A stretch of 63,925 bases of DNA, counting the filler. It is 5 parts of 5 records of this genome, joined end to end, with 100 filler letters (N's around TTAATTAATTAA, not from the genome) between each part and the next. Parts side by side here need not be neighbours in the genome. Positions count along the whole stretch, not along the records: positions 5,934 to 28,032 come from SRR31147125_43376; 4 more parts are not named here. One strand, 5' to 3'. The notes under the pieces are model-generated. The model worked only from the letters and a program-made list of their open reading frames with translations, was not told the origin of the DNA and searched no databases. The first letter of the stretch is position 1; each line of letters begins with the position of its first letter. Positions 5,834 through 58,586 of this stretch are shown one piece after another. A program made the translations under genes and the position numbers.

Positions 5834-5933
5834 NNNNNNNNNNNNNNNNNNNNNNNNNNNNNNNNNNNNNNNNNNNNTTAATTAATTAANNNNNNNNNNN
5901 NNNNNNNNNNNNNNNNNNNNNNNNNNNNNNNNN
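5834..5933. other. Artificial contig linker (N44-TTAATTAATTAA-N44)
   Basis: Six-frame stop spacer flanked by Ns. Genes are cut on both sides. Confidence 0.98.
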
Positions 5934-6498
5934 GCCTGCCGTTTTTCAGCCGCGTGTCATAGCAGAAGATGCATTTCATGACCCGGGGCTCAAACGCGCT
6001 CCCGTACTTGAACGCCGGTATCGAAAACGGGCAGGCGATCATGCAGGTCCGGCACCCGACGCACACATCAGGGTTGTAGATGACCGCCCCTTCCGGCGTC
6101 TTCGTGTAGGCATTGACGAAACAGGCGGTCAGGCAGGCCGGTTCAAGACAGTGGTTGCACTGGATCTTCCTGAACAGCGGGTGCTCCCAGAGCGGTGAAT
6201 CATACTTGTTGACCACCGTGTAGTGAGCATCATCGGGCCGTCTTGGGTGCTCGTCCTCGAACACGCGCTCGTCAGCGAAAGGAATGTCCGGAGCCGGCAA
6301 GCCCTGCTCCCTGTTGCAGGCAGCCTCACAACTCCGGCACCCGACGCACCGACCGAGATCAACCAGAACCCCGTAGTTGGTATCGTACCCGGTGAAGTCA
6401 TGGGCCGACGCGTTTTTCCAGGGCCGCAGCAGCCCGACGGACGCGGCCGTTGAAACGATCGCCTTCAGGAGCGTGCGCCGGTTCAGCCTGTGTTTCAT
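5934..6498 (-). CDS. Tat-exported 4Fe-4S dicluster electron-transfer subunit (HmcB/HybA/NrfC family); 3' truncated
   Basis: Twin-arginine signal RRTLLK and cluster motifs CVGCRSCEAAC, CNHCLEPACLTAC, CVGCRTCMIACPF and KCIFC. Confidence 0.9.
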
Positions 6499-6555
6499 GG
6501 TCTCCCCCTCGATTGGCTGGTAGCATCGCTTTGTTTCATCGTCCGGTCTCCCTGT

Positions 6556-7021
6556 TCATTTCTTCACGGCGTGGCAGGACTCGCAGCCGACCGGGCCCGT
6601 ACCGATTACCCGGTGGCAGGAAATGCAGTTCAGATGGTAGGCACCGATAAGACCGGGCACATCATTGTGGAAGAACGACTCCTCCCCCCGGAGAGCTGAG
6701 ATCGGGAGCGTAACGATCCGCGAGGTGGCAGCTCGCGCAGCCGACCGCCGCCTGCTGTCTCGAATCACTGTGGCACGGCAGGCAAAACGGATCGGACGGC
6801 GGTTCCCCGGTCACGTGGTGATGACATTCCACACAGGACGCATATGAGTCGTGCAACGCGTGATCGAAATATACCGGATCGTATATCTCAGCAAGCGTGT
6901 CGATGACGACACGTTCAGGCGGCTGTGCAACGCCGGCTGCACCTCCCCGGCAGACCGTCACCGCGATCACAAGAATTATTCCAGGCAGAATCCCGCATTT
7001 CCTCAGCTTAGTTGAAACCAT
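6556..7021 (-). CDS. Periplasmic cytochrome c3-family protein with 5 CxxCH heme motifs; 1-nt frameshift, probably in the C6 run 6684-6689
   Basis: Signal peptide from ATG 7021 with a GGAGG RBS. FDHALH, CVECH, CLPCH and CASCH lie in one frame; GAYHLNCISCH and GPVGCESCH lie in the next frame. Confidence 0.85.
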
Positions 7022-8855
7022 CTTTCTCCTCCCCTTCTGTTCCGCCGGACGGCTTCCGCCGTTTGCCGGAAAGACGATTTTCGCGGAAACACCGATAGAC
7101 GATATCGGCCTCCTCCCCGTCCAGCGTTTCATGGGCCAGCAATGACTCCGCGATCATGTGCAGAAATTCCCCGTTGGCCTCGATCAGCTCCCTGGTCTCC
7201 CGATACGCACTTGCGATGAGCGAACGGATCTCCATATCGATTTCGCGACACGTCTGTTCACTCTGCCGCCAGACCCCGGGTATGGGTTCACCCTGCTGCA
7301 TGGAAACGTCTCCGAGACAGACAACCGGCCCGAGTTCGCGCCCCATACCGAACTCGCAGACCAGGCGGTGGGCGAGATCAGTGGCACCGCGCAGGTCGTT
7401 GCTCGCTCCGGTGGTCATGCGCCCGAAGATGAACTCTTCGGCAACCCTGCCCCCGAGCAGGATCTTTATCCGGTTGACCAGATAGTCCTGCGAATAGGTG
7501 ATGTGATCGTCCAGGGGAAGCTGCAGGGTCTGGCCGAGCGAATGCCCCCGTGGAATGATGGTGATCTTGTGTAGCGGGTCGGTATCCGGAAGCAGTTTTG
7601 CGGCAACCGCGTGGCCTGCTTCATGGTAGGCGGTAAGCCGGCGGGCATCTTCGCTGATTACCGCATTCTTGCGCTCGAGCCCCATCATGATTTTGTCACG
7701 GGCCTCGTCGAAGTCCACCTGCTCGATGGCCTCCTTTCCGTTTCTGGCCGCGAGCAGCGCAGCCTCGTTGACCAGGTTGGCAATTTCCGCCCCGGTGAAT
7801 CCCGGTGTGAAGCGGGCTACCGCAACCAGGTCGACGGCGGGGCTGAGAAACGTTTCCGCCGTGTGTACCTGGAGGATTTTCGTCCGCCCCTTGATATCGG
7901 GCAGGTTCAGCGTGATCCTCCGGTCGAACCTGCCCGGCCGGAGCAGCGCCTCGTCGAGAATGTCGGAGCGGTTTGTCGCGGCGACAACGATAATCGTCTC
8001 ACCGGTCGCGAACCCGTCCATCTCGACCAGCAGCGCATTAAGGGTCTGCTCCCGCTCATCGCTTGAACCACTGCGGAAATCGGCCGACGAACGTTTCCCG
8101 CCGATCGCATCGATCTCGTCGATGAAAATGATGCACGGAGCCTCTTTTTTCGCATCCTCGAACAATTTCCTGACCCGCGATGCACCAAGACCGGCGAACA
8201 TCTCCACAAAGTCCGAGCCCCCGATCGAGAAAAACGGGACCGACGCCTCTCCGGCTATCGCACGGGCGAGTAGAGTCTTGCCGGTACCCGGCGGGCCTTC
8301 CAGAAGTACGCCTTTGGGAATCCGCCCACCAAGCCGGCTGAACTTTTCAGGAGTCTTCAGGAAATCGCACAGCTCCCGCAACTCCTCGAGCGCTTCGGCG
8401 ATACCCGCGACATCGTTGAAGGTCACAGCCTGCGCGCTATCTTTCGCGCGGTGCCGGTATTTTCCGGAGGAAAGATTCGTCGAGGTCTGACTTCTGCTCC
8501 GGCTGAGAATCATCCAGCCGCACATCAGCACGATGATGATCAGCATGTCCCTGAACAGTGGTGCCAGCACATGATCAGGTTTCGTCCGGATGACAACCTC
8601 TTCCGACTCCAGTAGCGGAATCAGCCCGGGCACATCCGGAGAGAACGTCGTATAGCAAAATCCGAACGCATCGGTAACCGTCACCACCCCGGATTTGATC
8701 ATCACCTCCGTGACTTCGCCCTCTCCGACAGCGGTAATGAACGTGCTGTACGGACGTTCGGGGAGCCGGTTGCCAACCTGGTAGAACAGATACCCTGCAC
8801 CAATGATCAGCACGATCACCACACCATAGATCATCGTCAATCTATCGAGTTTCAT
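7008..8855 (-). CDS. ftsH: ATP-dependent zinc metalloprotease FtsH (paralog embedded in a redox operon)
   Basis: Two N-terminal TM segments, Walker A GPPGTGKT, Walker [32 protein letters not shown] and GASND. Confidence 0.95.
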
Positions 8856-9733
8856 CCTTCTCCTCCCTGCGGACCGTATTCGATAGCCCCCATCAGCACC
8901 CGGTCAAACAGCTCCTCCTTGTTCCGGCAGAGCAGAACCGTCCTTGTGAAACAGAACTCGTCGAGCTGCCCCTGCATACGGTGCCGGCTGAACGGCTGAT
9001 ATTTCCGGCGCCCGTACCATCTGTAAAAATGCTCCAGCACCTCCCGGAAAACGAGAGCATTGCTGTTGGCATCATTGGCTATGTAGATATAGCAATCCAT
9101 CTCGACCGGTGGTGTGAACGGTTCCCGATCCGGCACCACCACAACAGAACCCGGTAGGACATATCCCCTGATGAAGCCGGACACGGCGCCGGCTTCCACC
9201 GAGCCTACGGCGGCCATCCGTACCGCACCGCTGAGGCGTCCTCCCGCAACGGACTCCACCGCCACGAGAAAGTGATAGAGGCGCTGATCCCGGCGTCCGC
9301 CAGGCAGTTCTCCAGACCCAACCACCACCGTGCCGGAAATCCGCTCTTCTACCAGTTCCCGAAGTGCGGACCTGAGCTTGCCCATCCAGGTCCAGGCCGT
9401 CTGGTAACCGGCAAACCCCAGTTCACGCTGCAGGTCCCTGGTGGTTGCATCCGCAGCATTGCAGATCAGCCACCAGATTGCCCGGAACCAGCAGTTGAGT
9501 TCCTTCTTACTGCCGTGCAGCAGCGTTCCTGCCGTGACCGTACTCATCCGCCCGCAACGCCGGCAGACAACCTGCCGGACCGGTAGCTGCCCCGGGGGCC
9601 GGTATCCGCAGAAGGGACAGACAAACCCCTCCGGCCATCTCAGGGCGAACAGGTGGGAGACACACCACTGCTCATCCGTCAACAGGTGGCTCATGTCACC
9701 GTCGCACTCGGCTGACACCGGTTCTGGTTTCAT
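8852..9733 (-). CDS. IS1595-family transposase-derived protein with degenerate DDE catalytic motifs (intact ORF)
   Basis: LRWPEGFVCPFC...CRRC Zn ribbon, TAGTLLH, LQRELG..YQTAWTWMGKLR HTH region and LDEFCF. The expected VEVDETY reads VVVGSGE and the expected TDGW reads VPDRE. No terminal inverted repeats were seen. Confidence 0.82.
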   Translation of the reverse strand: MKPEPVSAECDGDMSHLLTDEQWCVSHLFALRWPEGFVCPFCGYRPPGQLPVRQVVCRRCGRMSTVTAGTLLHGSKKELNCWFRAIWWLICNAADATTRDLQRELGFAGYQTAWTWMGKLRSALRELVEERISGTVVVGSGELPGGRRDQRLYHFLVAVESVAGGRLSGAVRMAAVGSVEAGAVSGFIRGYVLPGSVVVVPDREPFTPPVEMDCYIYIANDANSNALVFREVLEHFYRWYGRRKYQPFSRHRMQGQLDEFCFTRTVLLCRNKEELFDRVLMGAIEYGPQGGEG

Positions 9734-9783
9734 CGCGACACCTCCGTGCTACAGGGTTGTTCACGTGTCTCTGCCAATGAAAT

Positions 9784-9799
9784 TGCACATATGATGCCC
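9784..9799 (-). promoter_or_regulatory. Sigma54 (-24/-12) promoter for the transposase-like/ftsH/cytochrome operon
   Basis: Minus strand GGGCATCATATGTGCA has GG-N10-GC spacing. GGAGG RBS at 9741-9745 precedes ATG 9733. Confidence 0.65.
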
Positions 9800-10009
9800 G
9801 GTAACCCCACTATTGCACGAGTAGCTACGGCCTGACAGCCAGGGAGACTTGGGAAAGGCTCTCTATCTCACGAGCGAAGAATCATGCTGGGGCAGGCTGT
9901 CCCAGTGGGATATGGAGAGACGAAACTCCCCCGGTCAATCTGGCAGACTTGCGCCGGATCCAATTAAACGGGAGGGCGTAGAGCCCTGATTACGGAGCAG
10001 GCCGGGGAC

Positions 10010-10057
10010 GCAACAGAAATGAGGTATGCGGCAGAAGTGTTGCAACAGAAGTGTAGG
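10010..10057. promoter_or_regulatory. Three putative enhancer-binding-protein sites (GCAACA-N4-TGTTGC-like)
   Basis: GCAACA-GAAA-TGAGGT (10010), GCGGCA-GAAG-TGTTGC (10028) and GCAACA-GAAG-TGTAGG (10042), about 210-260 bp upstream of the sigma54 promoter. Confidence 0.5.
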
Positions 10058-10070
10058 ACCGACGGGAGAG

Positions 10071-11892
10071 CTACTCCAACTCGATGGCGGAGAGATCGAG
10101 GTCAAATTCCCTGATCTTTCGGTAGAGTGTTGACCGGTCGATACCGAGCAGCCGGGCCGCCTTGGCCTTGTTGCCGCCGCACTTGACTAGCGTCTCCACT
10201 ATCCGGGCAGCCTGCCGGTTCCGGTCGTTTCCCGCATCATCATCGCGAGGTATCGACAGCGACGGCTGCAGGTCTGGAGATGAGACCGAATCGGCGGGTA
10301 CCGGAACATCGGCTGTCCCTTTAAGAGCGACGAGTTCGCCGGGAAGATCAGCGGTCGTGATGGTTGATCCCTGGCACAACACAACCGCACGCTCGACAAG
10401 ATGTTCGAGTTCACGGACATTGCCCGGCCACGGGTAGCGCTCGAGCGCCCACACCGCGTTGTCGGATATCCCGATAATCGGCTTTTGCAGCTGCTCTCCG
10501 AATTTTTTTGCGAAAAACCAGGCAATCACTCCGATATCCCCCCCGCTCACGAAGGGGCGGCAGGGTGATATCAATCACTTTCAGACGGAAGTAGAGATCC
10601 TCTCTGAACGTTCCTTCCCGCACCTTTGCACCGAGGTCGACGTTGGTCGCCGTGATCACCCGTGTATCGACACTGATAGGTGCATCGCTGCCGACCGGGT
10701 AGAACGTCCGTTCCTGTAGAAAACGCAACAGCCGCAGCTGGGTCATCGGGGAGATTTCCCCGATCTCATCGAGAAACAACGTGCCGCCGTCCGCCTGCAG
10801 CAGCAACCCCTTGCGGTCCTTGTTGGCACCGGTGAACGAGCCTCTTTTGTGCCCAAACAACTCGCTCTCCAGAAGGTTCTCCGGTATCGCCGTACAGTCG
10901 ACCTTGATCAGCGGCTTGTCGCGGCGCGGCGATTCCCGGTGCAGCGCCTCTGCGCACAGCTCTTTGCCGGTACCGGACTCGCCCGTGACCAGCACGGTCG
11001 TATCGACCCGCCCGACGTTTTCTATCAGCGTGTAGATCTTCTGCATCGGGTCGCTGGAGCCAATAAAGCGGTGGAAACGCGATTTCCTCGAAGCGGCGCT
11101 TTCCGCAGGCGCAGACATGTCCCTGATGATGATAACCGCTCCACCCAGTGCCCCGTCTTCACCTTTCAGCGGTGATGCACAGACACTCAACACCTTGACG
11201 TCGGGTTCCGCAGCACGACACTCGAAGCGGTGCTCGCTGACGTCTTCTCCGGTCTGCAGCGCCTGCAGTAGATCGGCTCGCAGCGGTGAGAACCCGGCCC
11301 CGCAGATCTCCGAGCCAAGGTATTGATCCACTTCAACATCCGGCAGAAGAGCCTTGAACATGGTCTGCGCGGAACCGTTGAACTTCAGGATCCGGAGCTC
11401 GTCATCGACAATGATAATCGCATCGGCGGCGCTCTTGAATACGGTATCGAGCAGCACCCGGTACCGTTCCCGCTCCTGCTCCGCCGTGCGACGCTGGAAC
11501 TCGAGGTTGCGCTGCATCATGGCCAGGTGGACCGATCTCAGCAGCGGCGCTTTCTCAACCGGTTTGACAATGTAATCAAACGCGCCGTAGCGAAGCGATT
11601 CGGCGGCATTTTCGATGTCCGGGTAGCCGGTAATCAGGATGAACGGACAATCCAGGCCGATCTTCCGTGCGTGCTTGAGGATATCGATGCCGGTCGACAC
11701 GTCCAGCACGATATCGGAAATCACCAGGTCGATCGGCTCGGAGGACAGCAGGTCGACCGCCTCCCCATACCCCGACGCGGTGAACACGGGCTCATACCCC
11801 GCCCGGCTCAGAAAGAAATGAAACGTTTCTCTGAGACTCGCTTCATCATCTATGACCAGTATTGACCCCTTTTTCCGTACACCGTCATACAT
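10071..11892 (-). CDS. Sigma54-dependent response regulator (REC-PAS-AAA+-Fis HTH); frameshift at G7 run near 10538-10544
   Basis: ILVIDDE receiver, GESGTGKE, ESELFGHKRGSFTGA, LFLDEIGE and FREDLYFRL. WPGNVRELEH and NKAKAARLLGIDRSTLYRK are in the second frame. Confidence 0.92.
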
Positions 11893-11941
11893 GTCTCTCC
11901 CCCTTGCTTGCAGACATCGTTCTCACCGGCCCGGCAGCCAT

Positions 11942-13987
11942 TCATCCTCCGTTCTCCACCGGCCCCGCCGCCGGTAGATCAATAGTTATCGTCGTATAAC
12001 TGTTGTACAGGCTGTTGATACGCATGAACCCGCGGTTATCCCTGATCAGCCCATAGCTGATACTGAGCCCCAGCCCGGTCCCCTCACCGTTGGGCTTGGT
12101 GGAAAAAAACGGGTCGAATACGCGATCAAGGAGCTGATGTTCGATCCCGGACCCGAAATCGGTGACCGAAAATCGGATAAACGGGGTGTCCCCCTGGTAG
12201 ACCAGCGAACTGTTGATGACCAGCTTCTTCTTCGGGTCGGCCGTTTCATAGCGCTCGTTAAGTGCATACCGGGCATTGGAGATCACATTGAGAAACACCT
12301 GCTGGATCTGGGACGGGTTGCAGTAAACCAGCGGCAGATCGTCCTTCAGGAACAACTCGAGAACGATATTGTCCTTCGTGAGCTGGTGGATCACCAGTTC
12401 CAGGCAGTCGTTGAGCAATTCGGCGCAGTCGACCGGCACCGGTTCCTCCACCGTGTGCCGGGAGAAGTGGAGTAGGTTGCGCACGATTTTGGTGATACGC
12501 TTCCCCTCGGCGGAAATTCTTTCGACAATCTCGGACCCCTGCACATCGAGGTTCAGGTCGCTGAGCATCTGGGCATAGTTGAGGATCCCGTTGACCGGGT
12601 TGTTGATCTCGTGGGCGACCCCGGCCGCGAGTTCGCCGATCGACGCGAGCTGGGCTGCCCGAATTGCCTCCGCCTTGTGTCGTTCCTCCTCGGTCATATC
12701 GCGGGCGACCAGCAGGGTTGCCTCCACGGTACCGGCGATGCTCTTGAGCGGGCTGATCGTCAGCAGGTACTCGCCGTGCAGTCCCCCCAGCTCGGTGTTG
12801 AGAATTCGGCTCTTACCTGATTTGATCAAGGTTTCGAGCGGACAGGAGCTTTCCGTCTTTTTCCCGCCGTGCAGGATGTCGCACACCGACTTGCCGATCA
12901 CCTCCGCCCTGGGCCTGCGCGCGGCGGTAAACGTTGCGTGGTTGGCGTCGATGATTATCCCGTCGCGGGTCGCGATCAGGGCCGGATCCTGGATGGCATC
13001 GTAGATGTTTTCCCATTTGGCGACGGCACTGTCGTAGCGCTGGTCGGCTTCAAGCCGGTCGGTGATGTCAAGACCGAACAGCACCATGCCGACAATTCCC
13101 TGATCGATATCCTGCTTGATTGAGCTGTGCCAGTCGATTGTCCGCACATCACCATCCCTGGTCTGCAGCGCCGCCCTGAAACTCGGGTGCTTTGCGTCAC
13201 TTTTCAGCAGCTTGGAGATCATGTTCTGGTAATGCAGGCGATAGTCAGGGGCGAGCAGTACATCGACCCAGTAGCAGTCGAGCACCTCCCAGCGACGGTA
13301 CCCGGTTACCCGCTCCGCCTCGGAGTTGAAATAGACGATTTTACCGCACGGGGTAATCGAGATCATCAGCGCCTGGATGGTATCGATGATCTCCTTGTTA
13401 AAATCCATCTCGAACTGAAGCTGGACGGCCACGTCGTGTGTGTAGAGAAGCAGGGACAGGTCGGCGACGGTGGTATCGAGCAGGTCGATCTCCGCCTCGG
13501 GAAATCCATCCGCCAGATCGGAGAAAACGAGAAGAACGCCGAAGACGGCTTCGTGGTGGATGAGCGGCCAGATCCCATACGACCGGTGGCTGCTCTTGTG
13601 CGGCAACGGGGAGATACTCACCGGCGGATCAACAGCCCGCCTGATAACCGGGTGGCGACCTGCGATCGCCTGATCGACCTGGGTGCTGAGGGTGGGATCG
13701 AGCAGGATCTGCTTCTCGTCGAAGCGCCTCACGCCCCCCGGCCCCTCCTCCGGGTGCAGGTAGTTTAACGGAGTCACCAGGGCCGTATCGGGGAGATACC
13801 TGCCGACCCAGATACCATCGAATGCGCTGAACCAAAGGATGATCTCAGCACAGGCGCCGAGCAGTTCGTTTCTGCTCCGGTCTGCCAGCTTATCACCCGT
13901 CAGCCGGTTAATCGCGTGCAGTATTCCGGTTCGCCTGATCAGTGCGTCCTTTGACGCATGATTGATGGTTCCCGCTACAATAGACAT
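11942..13987 (-). CDS. Cytoplasmic sensor histidine kinase (GAF-like, two PAS, HisKA, HATPase)
   Basis: H-box AGVAHEINNP, QVFLNVISNA, DFGSGI and FDPFFSTKPNGEGTGLGL. Probable start MSIVAG at 13987. Confidence 0.92.
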   Translation of the reverse strand: MSIVAGTINHASKDALIRRTGILHAINRLTGDKLADRSRNELLGACAEIILWFSAFDGIWVGRYLPDTALVTPLNYLHPEEGPGGVRRFDEKQILLDPTLSTQVDQAIAGRHPVIRRAVDPPVSISPLPHKSSHRSYGIWPLIHHEAVFGVLLVFSDLADGFPEAEIDLLDTTVADLSLLLYTHDVAVQLQFEMDFNKEIIDTIQALMISITPCGKIVYFNSEAERVTGYRRWEVLDCYWVDVLLAPDYRLHYQNMISKLLKSDAKHPSFRAALQTRDGDVRTIDWHSSIKQDIDQGIVGMVLFGLDITDRLEADQRYDSAVAKWENIYDAIQDPALIATRDGIIIDANHATFTAARRPRAEVIGKSVCDILHGGKKTESSCPLETLIKSGKSRILNTELGGLHGEYLLTISPLKSIAGTVEATLLVARDMTEEERHKAEAIRAAQLASIGELAAGVAHEINNPVNGILNYAQMLSDLNLDVQGSEIVERISAEGKRITKIVRNLLHFSRHTVEEPVPVDCAELLNDCLELVIHQLTKDNIVLELFLKDDLPLVYCNPSQIQQVFLNVISNARYALNERYETADPKKKLVINSSLVYQGDTPFIRFSVTDFGSGIEHQLLDRVFDPFFSTKPNGEGTGLGLSISYGLIRDNRGFMRINSLYNSYTTITIDLPAAGPVENGG

Positions 13988-14019
13988 TGATGGCACCCCG
14001 GTGGAATTCAGGCCGCCAT

Positions 14020-14078
14020 GCCACAGTTGTGCAGCATGCACTTACCGGTTCCCTTCTACTATACCACACAACTGTTGC
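14020..14078. promoter_or_regulatory. Two further copies of the GCNRCA-N4-TGYNGC motif upstream of the kinase
   Basis: GCCACA-GTTG-TGCAGC (14020-14035) and ACCACA-CAAC-TGTTGC (14063-14078). Confidence 0.45.
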
Positions 14079-28032: not shown

Positions 28033-28132
28033 NNNNNNNNNNNNNNNNNNNNNNNNNNNNNNNNNNNNNNNNNNNNTTAATTAATTAANNNNNNNNNNNN
28101 NNNNNNNNNNNNNNNNNNNNNNNNNNNNNNNN
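28033..28132. other. Artificial contig linker
   Basis: N44-TTAATTAATTAA-N44. Confidence 0.98.
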
Positions 28133-52055: not shown

Positions 52056-52155
52056 NNNNNNNNNNNNNNNNNNNNNNNNNNNNNNNNNNNNNNNNNNNNT
52101 TAATTAATTAANNNNNNNNNNNNNNNNNNNNNNNNNNNNNNNNNNNNNNNNNNNN
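52056..52155. other. Artificial contig linker
   Basis: N44-TTAATTAATTAA-N44. Confidence 0.98.
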
Positions 52156-58486: not shown

Positions 58487-58586
58487 NNNNNNNNNNNNNN
58501 NNNNNNNNNNNNNNNNNNNNNNNNNNNNNNTTAATTAATTAANNNNNNNNNNNNNNNNNNNNNNNNNNNNNNNNNNNNNNNNNNNN
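58487..58586. other. Artificial contig linker
   Basis: N44-TTAATTAATTAA-N44. Confidence 0.98.

Follow-up and report, generated by a model that had tools for sequence, protein, structure and literature searches.

An apparently domesticated, catalytically dead IS1595-type transposase as first cistron of a predicted sigma54 operon with an accessory FtsH and an Hmc-like cytochrome module in Desulfobulbales

The window analysed here is a stretch of 63,925 nucleotides and consists of five contigs joined artificially by N spacers around TTAATTAATTAA (5834-5933, 28033-28132, 52056-52155 and 58487-58586), so that gene neighbourhoods across the spacers are not real. All genes of the present finding lie on the minus strand of a single contig (SRR31147125_43376, 5934-28032). 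They comprise a gene related to transposases of the family IS1595 (encoding the "Tnp-like protein" hereafter), which is the first cistron of a predicted sigma54 operon and precedes the genes of an FtsH paralog, a pentaheme c-type cytochrome and an HmcB-like Fe-S protein (Table 1). Shared synteny, a single strong copy, a clade devoid of the catalytic triad D-D-E, the ratio of nonsynonymous to synonymous substitutions (dN/dS) and a divergence that tracks FtsH make it close to certain that the Tnp-like gene is domesticated, single-copy, vertically inherited and under purifying selection. As an explanation of the whole, we favour with middling confidence a dead transposase that would act as operon-specific DNA-binding regulator and be translationally coupled to an FtsH tending the complex encoded downstream.

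The Tnp-like open reading frame (ORF) is intact and carries the Zn ribbon and helix-turn-helix (HTH) that the original prediction had read in it. Its sole Pfam match is Zn_ribbon_IS1595 (PF12760, 32 bits against a cut-off of 25.4); Pfam returns no match to DDE_Tnp_IS1595 (PF12762) in this protein, and the NCBIfam model transpos_IS1595 (NF033547) scores 45.7 bits, below its cut-off of 75. As in the IS1595 DDE transposases (PF12760 plus PF12762; NF033547), the protein possesses a CxxC...CxxC Zn ribbon (residues 20-62, with C39, C42, C57 and C60), a three-helix HTH region (about residues 79-128, with SYQTAWTW..KLR) and an RNase-H-like core (about residues 135-285) of the same length and element order; its identity to active members is about 30%. 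Across 43 family sequences neither the four Zn cysteines nor the HTH residues change, while the columns of the first and second catalytic aspartates (D1 and D2) vary. The AlphaFold model, computed from an alignment of these 43 sequences (pLDDT 86.6, pTM 0.81), is confident and shows the Zn ribbon and the three-helix region beside an alpha/beta core. Retroviral integrases match it best in the PDB, with the ISCth4 transposase at rank 2 and TnsB and IstA lower.

Unlike in IS1595 DDE transposases, the acidic motifs are replaced, as had been proposed. In the alignment with DDE-intact relatives VVVGS lies under VEVDE, which places G at D1, and VVPDRE lies under ITDGW, where P occupies the canonical D2 column; the D one column after D2 is unconserved within the family. 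The third acidic residue, E of LDEF (E259), is retained, and the glycine/arginine-rich GxRGRG loop behind D1 is deleted. Across the family no member retains D2, and most have lost D1 too. Without two of the three catalytic acids the Tnp-like protein is predicted to be catalytically dead. No terminal inverted repeats flank the ORF: the best pair found (23 nt, 78% complementary) lies inside neighbouring coding regions.

The Tnp-like gene has its own ribosome-binding site (RBS) behind a GG-N10-GC promoter and is coupled to ftsH by an ATGA overlap, both exactly as first described. The -24/-12 element (TGGCAY-N6-TGCA) is located 51-82 nt before the start codon in 39 of 43 loci, and 42 of them have it at some upstream position. 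The gene of a sigma54 enhancer-binding protein (EBP) lies directly upstream of the operon in 38 of 42 related loci, at a distance of 337 nt from the Tnp-like ORF in the window. The operon is accordingly read as having a conserved, putative sigma54 promoter with the gene of its cognate EBP upstream, and the sigma54 operon of the original prediction is strongly supported. A script finds the Tnp-like gene and ftsH overlapping by 1, 4 or 8 nt in 27 of the 43 loci and separated by 3-40 nt in 15; for locus L198 it gives +51, but the printed junction reads ATGA there too. The ftsH RBS is situated inside the 3' end of the Tnp-like ORF. The ATG of the cytochrome gene overlaps the end of ftsH by 14 bp, and 57 nt separate the cytochrome gene from that of the Fe-S protein, whose N-terminus MKHRLNRRTLLK is a twin-arginine signal; these distances, and the assignment of the Fe-S subunit to the twin-arginine translocation (Tat) pathway, agree with the original prediction.

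Table 1. Positions of the operon, its regulatory neighbours and the adjoining spacer in the window
Feature	Position	Strand	Basis
Artificial spacer, N runs around TTAATTAATTAA, non-biological	5834..5933		sequence
Tat-exported HmcB-like 4Fe-4S protein, 3' end cut by contig end	5934..6498	-	NF045715
Periplasmic pentaheme c-type cytochrome, c3/c7-like	6556..7021	-	CXXCH count, relatives, Logan contig
Accessory FtsH paralog (predicted), 615 aa, two N-terminal transmembrane segments (read from sequence)	7008..8855	-	TIGR01241
ATGA overlap, Tnp-like TGA / ftsH ATG	8852..8855	-	sequence
IS1595-derived Tnp-like protein, 293 aa	8852..9733	-	Pfam, NCBIfam, alignment, structure model
Shine-Dalgarno GGAGG of the Tnp-like gene	9741..9745	-	sequence
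Predicted sigma54 -24/-12 promoter GGGCATCATATGTGCA, 66 nt before the Tnp-like ATG	9784..9799	-	sequence, relatives
Sigma54 enhancer-binding response regulator, REC-PAS-AAA+-HTH_8	10071..11892	-	Pfam
Cytoplasmic sensor histidine kinase, GAF-PAS-PAS-HisKA-HATPase, opening the conserved pair of regulatory genes	11942..14041	-	Pfam

A profile built from the closest homologs was run against 301 genomes of the order to which the genome of locus L001 belongs. Scores of at least 205 bits are reached in 49 of these genomes, with one such match each. The loci compared are 40 fetched from those genomes plus L001 and L002 (42 in total), to which 16 lower-scoring matches are added. Tnp-like, FtsH, cytochrome, HmcB and HmcC genes succeed each other on one strand in 42 of 42 loci. 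The 16 lower-scoring matches comprise seven further members with the full operon, eight true IS1595 transposases and one degenerate member (L330); apart from the seven and L330, the weaker profile matches in the 301 genomes are ordinary insertion sequences. Altogether, 49 further loci possess the order Tnp-like, FtsH, 5-heme cytochrome, HmcB-like and HmcC-like, and all that are named belong to Desulfobulbales. The copy number of the Tnp-like gene in the window organism is judged from relatives, with one strong copy each in the genomes G001 and G002, and from run X1, which is probably the source run and has only one contig that covers the gene. The degenerate L330 (G221:C48) is located behind a kinase and an activator gene with no ftsH or cytochrome gene within 8 kb, and may be a broken-up locus.

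The eight true IS1595 copies keep VEVDET and TDGW, and three of them occur, with inverted repeats, in one genome. Elements of this kind are multi-copy in the order, keep D-D-E and are bounded by 24-30-nt inverted repeats; at the copies of genome G267, target duplications of 8 bp were identified by eye. In a tree of 171 sequences the Tnp-like family forms one clade of 65 tips with support 1.0. D-D-E is present in none of the 65 members, all of which have lost D2, and in 103 of the 106 sequences outside. Nei-Gojobori estimates over the whole length, from related pairs with dS < 1.5, give dN/dS of 0.04-0.30 for the Tnp-like gene and 0.03-0.16 for the neighbouring ftsH, and pairwise identities of the two proteins are correlated with r = 0.94 (903 pairs). 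Multiple copies with inverted repeats, absence from the locus in relatives, neutral evolution and an intact D-D-E were thus each looked for and none was found, and the claim of a domesticated, catalytically dead IS1595 transposase is strongly supported. A still mobile or recently decayed IS1595 element standing here by chance, as the name "transposase" given to close relatives in public sources and the Pfam match of the Zn ribbon might suggest, is refuted by the repeat, copy-number, catalytic-residue and dN/dS tests and by the contrast with the true elements of the order.

A prokaryote-wide scan with family-specific peptide patterns (one genome per species) yields 115 relatives. Among the best 80 of these, every informative record title ahead of the final few rows names a member of the Desulfobulbales (Desulfocapsa, Desulfofustis, Desulfobulbus, Desulforhopalus, Desulfotalea and Ca. 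Desulfatifera), and the other titles read uncultured delta proteobacterium, Proteobacteria or similar. Desulfofustis glycolicus DSM 9705, Desulfobulbus rhabdoformis DSM 8777 and D. elongatus DSM 2908 are cultured carriers of the family. A scan of metagenome contigs returned only ordinary IS1595 transposases of 27-41% identity, mostly on short contigs useless for synteny. Metagenome contigs of the runs X3 and X4 (sediment and seawater) span the Tnp-like/ftsH junction, corresponding to window positions 8715-9602, with 47 differences in 888 nt, and indicate close relatives of the window organism in other samples.

The FtsH encoded behind the Tnp-like gene matches TIGR01241 with 693 bits (cut-off 600). 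It has the full architecture of the family, and its Walker A (GPPGTGKT), Walker B (DEID) and Zn-protease (HEAGH) motifs are intact in the window and invariant in 42 orthologs; the protein is complete and looks active. Three and four FtsH genes are found in two metagenome-assembled genomes and 3-5 in five single-contig genomes; the operon copy scores 717-739 bits vs 867-878 bits for the best FtsH. Judged by these counts and scores the operon FtsH is an accessory paralog, and the proposal of a dedicated extra FtsH is strongly supported by the synteny in the 49 further loci. Known partners and substrates of FtsH include HflKC, sigma32 and lambda CII, and labile regulators degraded by FtsH have textbook precedents. 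Unlike textbook FtsH, the present one is one of 3-5 copies in the genomes examined, lies inside a respiratory operon, is coupled to a transposase-derived gene and involves no known partner family.

Like the Hmc, Nhc and Ohc complexes of sulfate reducers, the module encoded downstream combines a multiheme cytochrome of the periplasm with an HmcB-like Fe-S protein exported by Tat and a membrane protein of the HmcC/NrfD type. As the finding borders the contig join at 5934, the window has only the 5' part of the Fe-S gene and lacks an HmcC/NrfD gene. The HmcB-like fragment reaches 233.8 bits with NF045715; full-length orthologs remain below the equivalog cut-offs for HmcB (NF045715, 359 vs 420) and HmcC (NF045714, 344 vs 550), which are nevertheless the best-matching families for the Fe-S and membrane subunits. 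The ohcBAC operon of Desulfovibrio vulgaris stands under the sigma54 activator DVU3142 (PMC4641369), which provides a precedent for control of an Hmc-family complex by a cognate sigma54 EBP. Unlike in the Hmc, Nhc and Ohc systems, the cytochrome has only 5 hemes and about 175 aa, no HmcD, HmcE or HmcF genes follow downstream, and protease and transposase-derived genes stand upstream. In L227 (13682-15106), and similarly in many Desulfocapsa-type loci, hmcC is succeeded on its own strand by a gene of 474 aa that matches HisKA weakly and may be a sixth operon gene.

The original prediction had also assumed a single 5-heme cytochrome gene at the 14-bp overlap with ftsH. The overlap is exact, but as written in the window the gene falls into two overlapping frames (6662-7132 with three CXXCH, 6556-6768 with two). 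The sigma54 activator is likewise written as two ORFs (10411-11892 and 10071-10574), with the break in a G7 run near 10537, and both breaks sit in G runs of the coding strand. The Logan contig of run X1, which covers 5934-11537, differs from the window by +CC at 6683, +CC at 10537 and +C at 6503 and by no other letter, and the Tnp-like and ftsH genes are identical in both. The +CC at 6683 is also found in three other metagenome runs. Each insertion of two letters restores a single frame, of 193 codons in the cytochrome and 608 codons in the activator; a single cytochrome ORF with five CXXCH is present in 42 of 42 relatives, and the activator orthologs are single ORFs of 605-606 aa. The frameshifts in both genes are homopolymer assembly artefacts, and true pseudogenisation of cytochrome and activator is ruled out by the homopolymers as read in the Logan contig. 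The window record collapses homopolymers relative to that contig, and other genes of the assembly may carry like errors.

Most related loci have an ortholog of the histidine kinase upstream. In relatives, among them the closest one (L197), a separate gene for a PAS-domain protein stands between kinase and activator; the corresponding interval of the window (11892-11942) has 49 nt only, without a match to that protein.

The pentaheme cytochrome occurs in 165 of the 301 genomes, and the operon also exists without a Tnp-like gene. Twenty loci were sampled from genomes that gave no strong match to the Tnp-like family. Cytochrome, HmcB and HmcC are present in all 20 and a Tnp-like gene in none, which marks this gene as a lineage-specific add-on. 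An ftsH stands in front in 12 of the 20, a short FtsH-like fragment only in one (L336), and no ftsH in seven. The remark of the original prediction that Hmc-type operons are not known to contain a protease or a transposase is thereby to be qualified as to the protease: in this order FtsH paralogs repeatedly precede cytochrome/Fe-S/NrfD-type modules, also where no Tnp-like gene is present. In many of the Tnp-less loci two small membrane-protein genes fill the slot behind the sigma54 promoter. Such a hydrophobic pair is located between the activator gene and the ftsH or cytochrome gene in L342-L347, L349, L350 and L353, one protein having about 71-84 aa and ending in ..WLTAxTGM, the other about 102-113 aa with DFYTHIKGVEY; L346 has the pair twice.

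The operon copies group in a single clade of the FtsH tree (0.999), in which eight copies from the small-protein operons branch first and all Tnp-associated copies fall into the next clade (0.865). The Tnp-less L334, L335 and L337 are nested inside the latter, which suggests a later loss of the Tnp-like gene, although deeper nodes are weak; a search for Tnp-like remnants in the promoter-to-ftsH gaps of these three loci found none at E <= 1 beyond noise. Locus L333 (G069:C1:3352000-3366000) has a parallel module directly upstream of its Tnp-like operon, consisting of cytochrome c7, NrfD, a PAS kinase, a sigma54 activator, four tandem small ORFs (68-74 aa) and a second FtsH paralog, followed by a 301-aa protein without Pfam match, a multiheme cytochrome, NrfD and an Fe-S protein. 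The 301-aa protein was considered as a member of the Tnp-like family and is unrelated (hhalign probability 0.09). This second module suggests that FtsH is tied to such respiratory modules generally and the Tnp-like protein to one lineage.

The history that emerges from the comparison begins in an ancestor within Desulfobulbales, where an IS1595-family transposase gene was fixed in front of an accessory ftsH and behind a sigma54 promoter. The second catalytic aspartate was lost, and in most lineages, including that of the window, the first as well; terminal repeats and mobility were also lost. Vertical inheritance and purifying selection have since maintained the gene as the leading member of a five-gene operon beside a histidine kinase and a sigma54 activator. 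For the present function of the protein, the original prediction had proposed a DNA-binding or Zn/redox regulator or a protease adaptor, all of which are putative roles. The Tnp-like protein is most likely, we infer, an operon-specific DNA-binding regulator. Its invariant residues are those of the DNA-binding part common to active transposases, so that continued binding of DNA through Zn ribbon and HTH is the simplest reading, and the position of the gene points to a regulatory role specific to the operon. Many transposases repress their own promoter within their left end, and the Tnp-like protein would most simply occupy the leader just downstream of its own -12 element. Translational coupling would hold Tnp-like protein and FtsH at a fixed ratio, and the former may be a labile regulator degraded by the latter. 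The FtsH paralog most likely tends the assembly or turnover of the quinone-linked cytochrome/Fe-S/membrane complex encoded downstream.

A candidate binding site is present in the leader of many loci. Of 50 Tnp-like loci, 30 carry the 12-mer AAGTGGATARGT at a distance of 12-14 nt behind the -12 element; in the five lowest-scoring of the 50, no promoter was found upstream of the Tnp-like gene. Where present, the 12-mer mostly stands 31-45 nt before the ATG, near the expected transcription start, for example at about 7966-7977 of L227 (leaders of L203-L235). In L204 and L209, with leaders 70-100 nt longer, its distance to the promoter is constant and that to the start codon is not; in L204 the 12-mer is an arm of the perfect inverted pair CTTATCCAC-N6-GTGGATAAG. 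At the promoter-linked position it is found in none of the 20 related operons without a Tnp-like gene. In five single-contig genomes AAGTGGATARGT occurs once or twice per genome, one occurrence being at the Tnp-like locus in each; a control pattern also occurs once or twice. In active relatives the left inverted repeat lies about 50 nt before the ATG, a position that fits the 12-mer as a relic. A wider scheme can be built on this, in which the whole insertion sequence would have been co-opted: the dead transposase would be the transcription factor, the left-end relic AAGTGGATARGT its operator and FtsH the protease that degrades the factor, forming a protease-gated feedback loop that sets the level of the quinone-linked pentaheme complex in Desulfobulbales. 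We regard this scheme as speculative and rather unlikely.

Several observations weigh against a DNA-binding regulator acting in the leader. The 12-mer is absent from the subclade of the window (window, L001, L002, L197-L200, L202, L206, L225 and L236), in which no replacement motif was found, and it therefore lends only indirect support here. Its reverse complement TTATCCAC fits eight of nine positions of the DnaA-box consensus, and the 12-mer could thus be a DnaA box; it could also be an element of the 5' untranslated region. Its lack in operons without the Tnp-like gene may only reflect one deletion that removed both. The ends of three active IS1595 relatives (CTGGGCTATGCACTTG.., ATGGGGTATTTAGTTGAC.. 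and TAGGGGTATTCCGTTGGC..) bear no convincing likeness to it. Finally, many relatives run this respiratory core with no Tnp-like gene at all, which makes the role of the Tnp-like protein accessory.

The main rival to a DNA-binding regulator is a partner or substrate of FtsH. According to this explanation, a lesser possibility that still deserves weight, the Tnp-like protein would act by protein contacts, as cytoplasmic adaptor, inhibitor or substrate of the co-translated FtsH, steering the protease toward or away from the Hmc-like subunits with its DNA-binding surface put to a new use. The Tnp-like gene is always directly before ftsH, usually with overlapping stop and start, and the small membrane proteins in the same slot of related operons would fit the position of a modulator. 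The FtsH genes that follow a Tnp-like gene all fall into one clade, but the nested L334, L335 and L337 manage without a Tnp-like protein; the divergence of the two proteins is correlated, but shared descent alone accounts for that. The most conserved residues, moreover, are the Zn ribbon and HTH common to active transposases, as expected if DNA binding was kept. A complex prediction of the Tnp-like protein with FtsH residues 125-615, made without alignments, scores 0.00 and counts for neither side.

A further alternative regards the Tnp-like frame as kept only as a leader that supplies RBS and translational coupling to ftsH, with a protein that has no role. The location of the ftsH RBS within the Tnp-like 3' end and the stop/start overlap in most loci would suit such a leader, but 300 codons with invariant Zn cysteines and HTH residues are not needed by one, the dN/dS over the whole length reflects constraint on the protein, and the predicted fold is well formed; we consider this alternative very improbable.

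Domesticated transposases and nucleases that serve as regulators comprise eukaryotic cases and, in bacteria, the TnpB-derived TldR repressors; IS1595/Merlin-type domestication is reported for ciliates. The Tnp-like protein resembles them in its loss of catalysis, its presumed retention of nucleic-acid binding, its fixed single-copy locus and purifying selection; it differs from them as a bacterial DDE-type IS1595 transposase whose gene is fixed at the head of a sigma54 operon that also encodes a protease. To our knowledge, DDE transposases turned host genes are common in eukaryotes and few are documented in bacteria. Full-text searches of the literature and look-ups in papers on sigma54 found no description of the Tnp-like protein, of the operon or of such a case.

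The Tnp-like gene represents a rare bacterial case of a transposase turned host gene that is old, distributed across one order, under selection and provided with defined genomic partners. Under the database label "transposase" a conserved component of the operon is concealed and mobile elements are overcounted. The operon also points to a recurring and apparently undescribed link between accessory FtsH and sigma54-controlled respiratory modules of the cytochrome/Fe-S/NrfD type in the sulfur-cycling Desulfobulbales, and the cultured carriers make a tractable system for how a transposase fold is reused.

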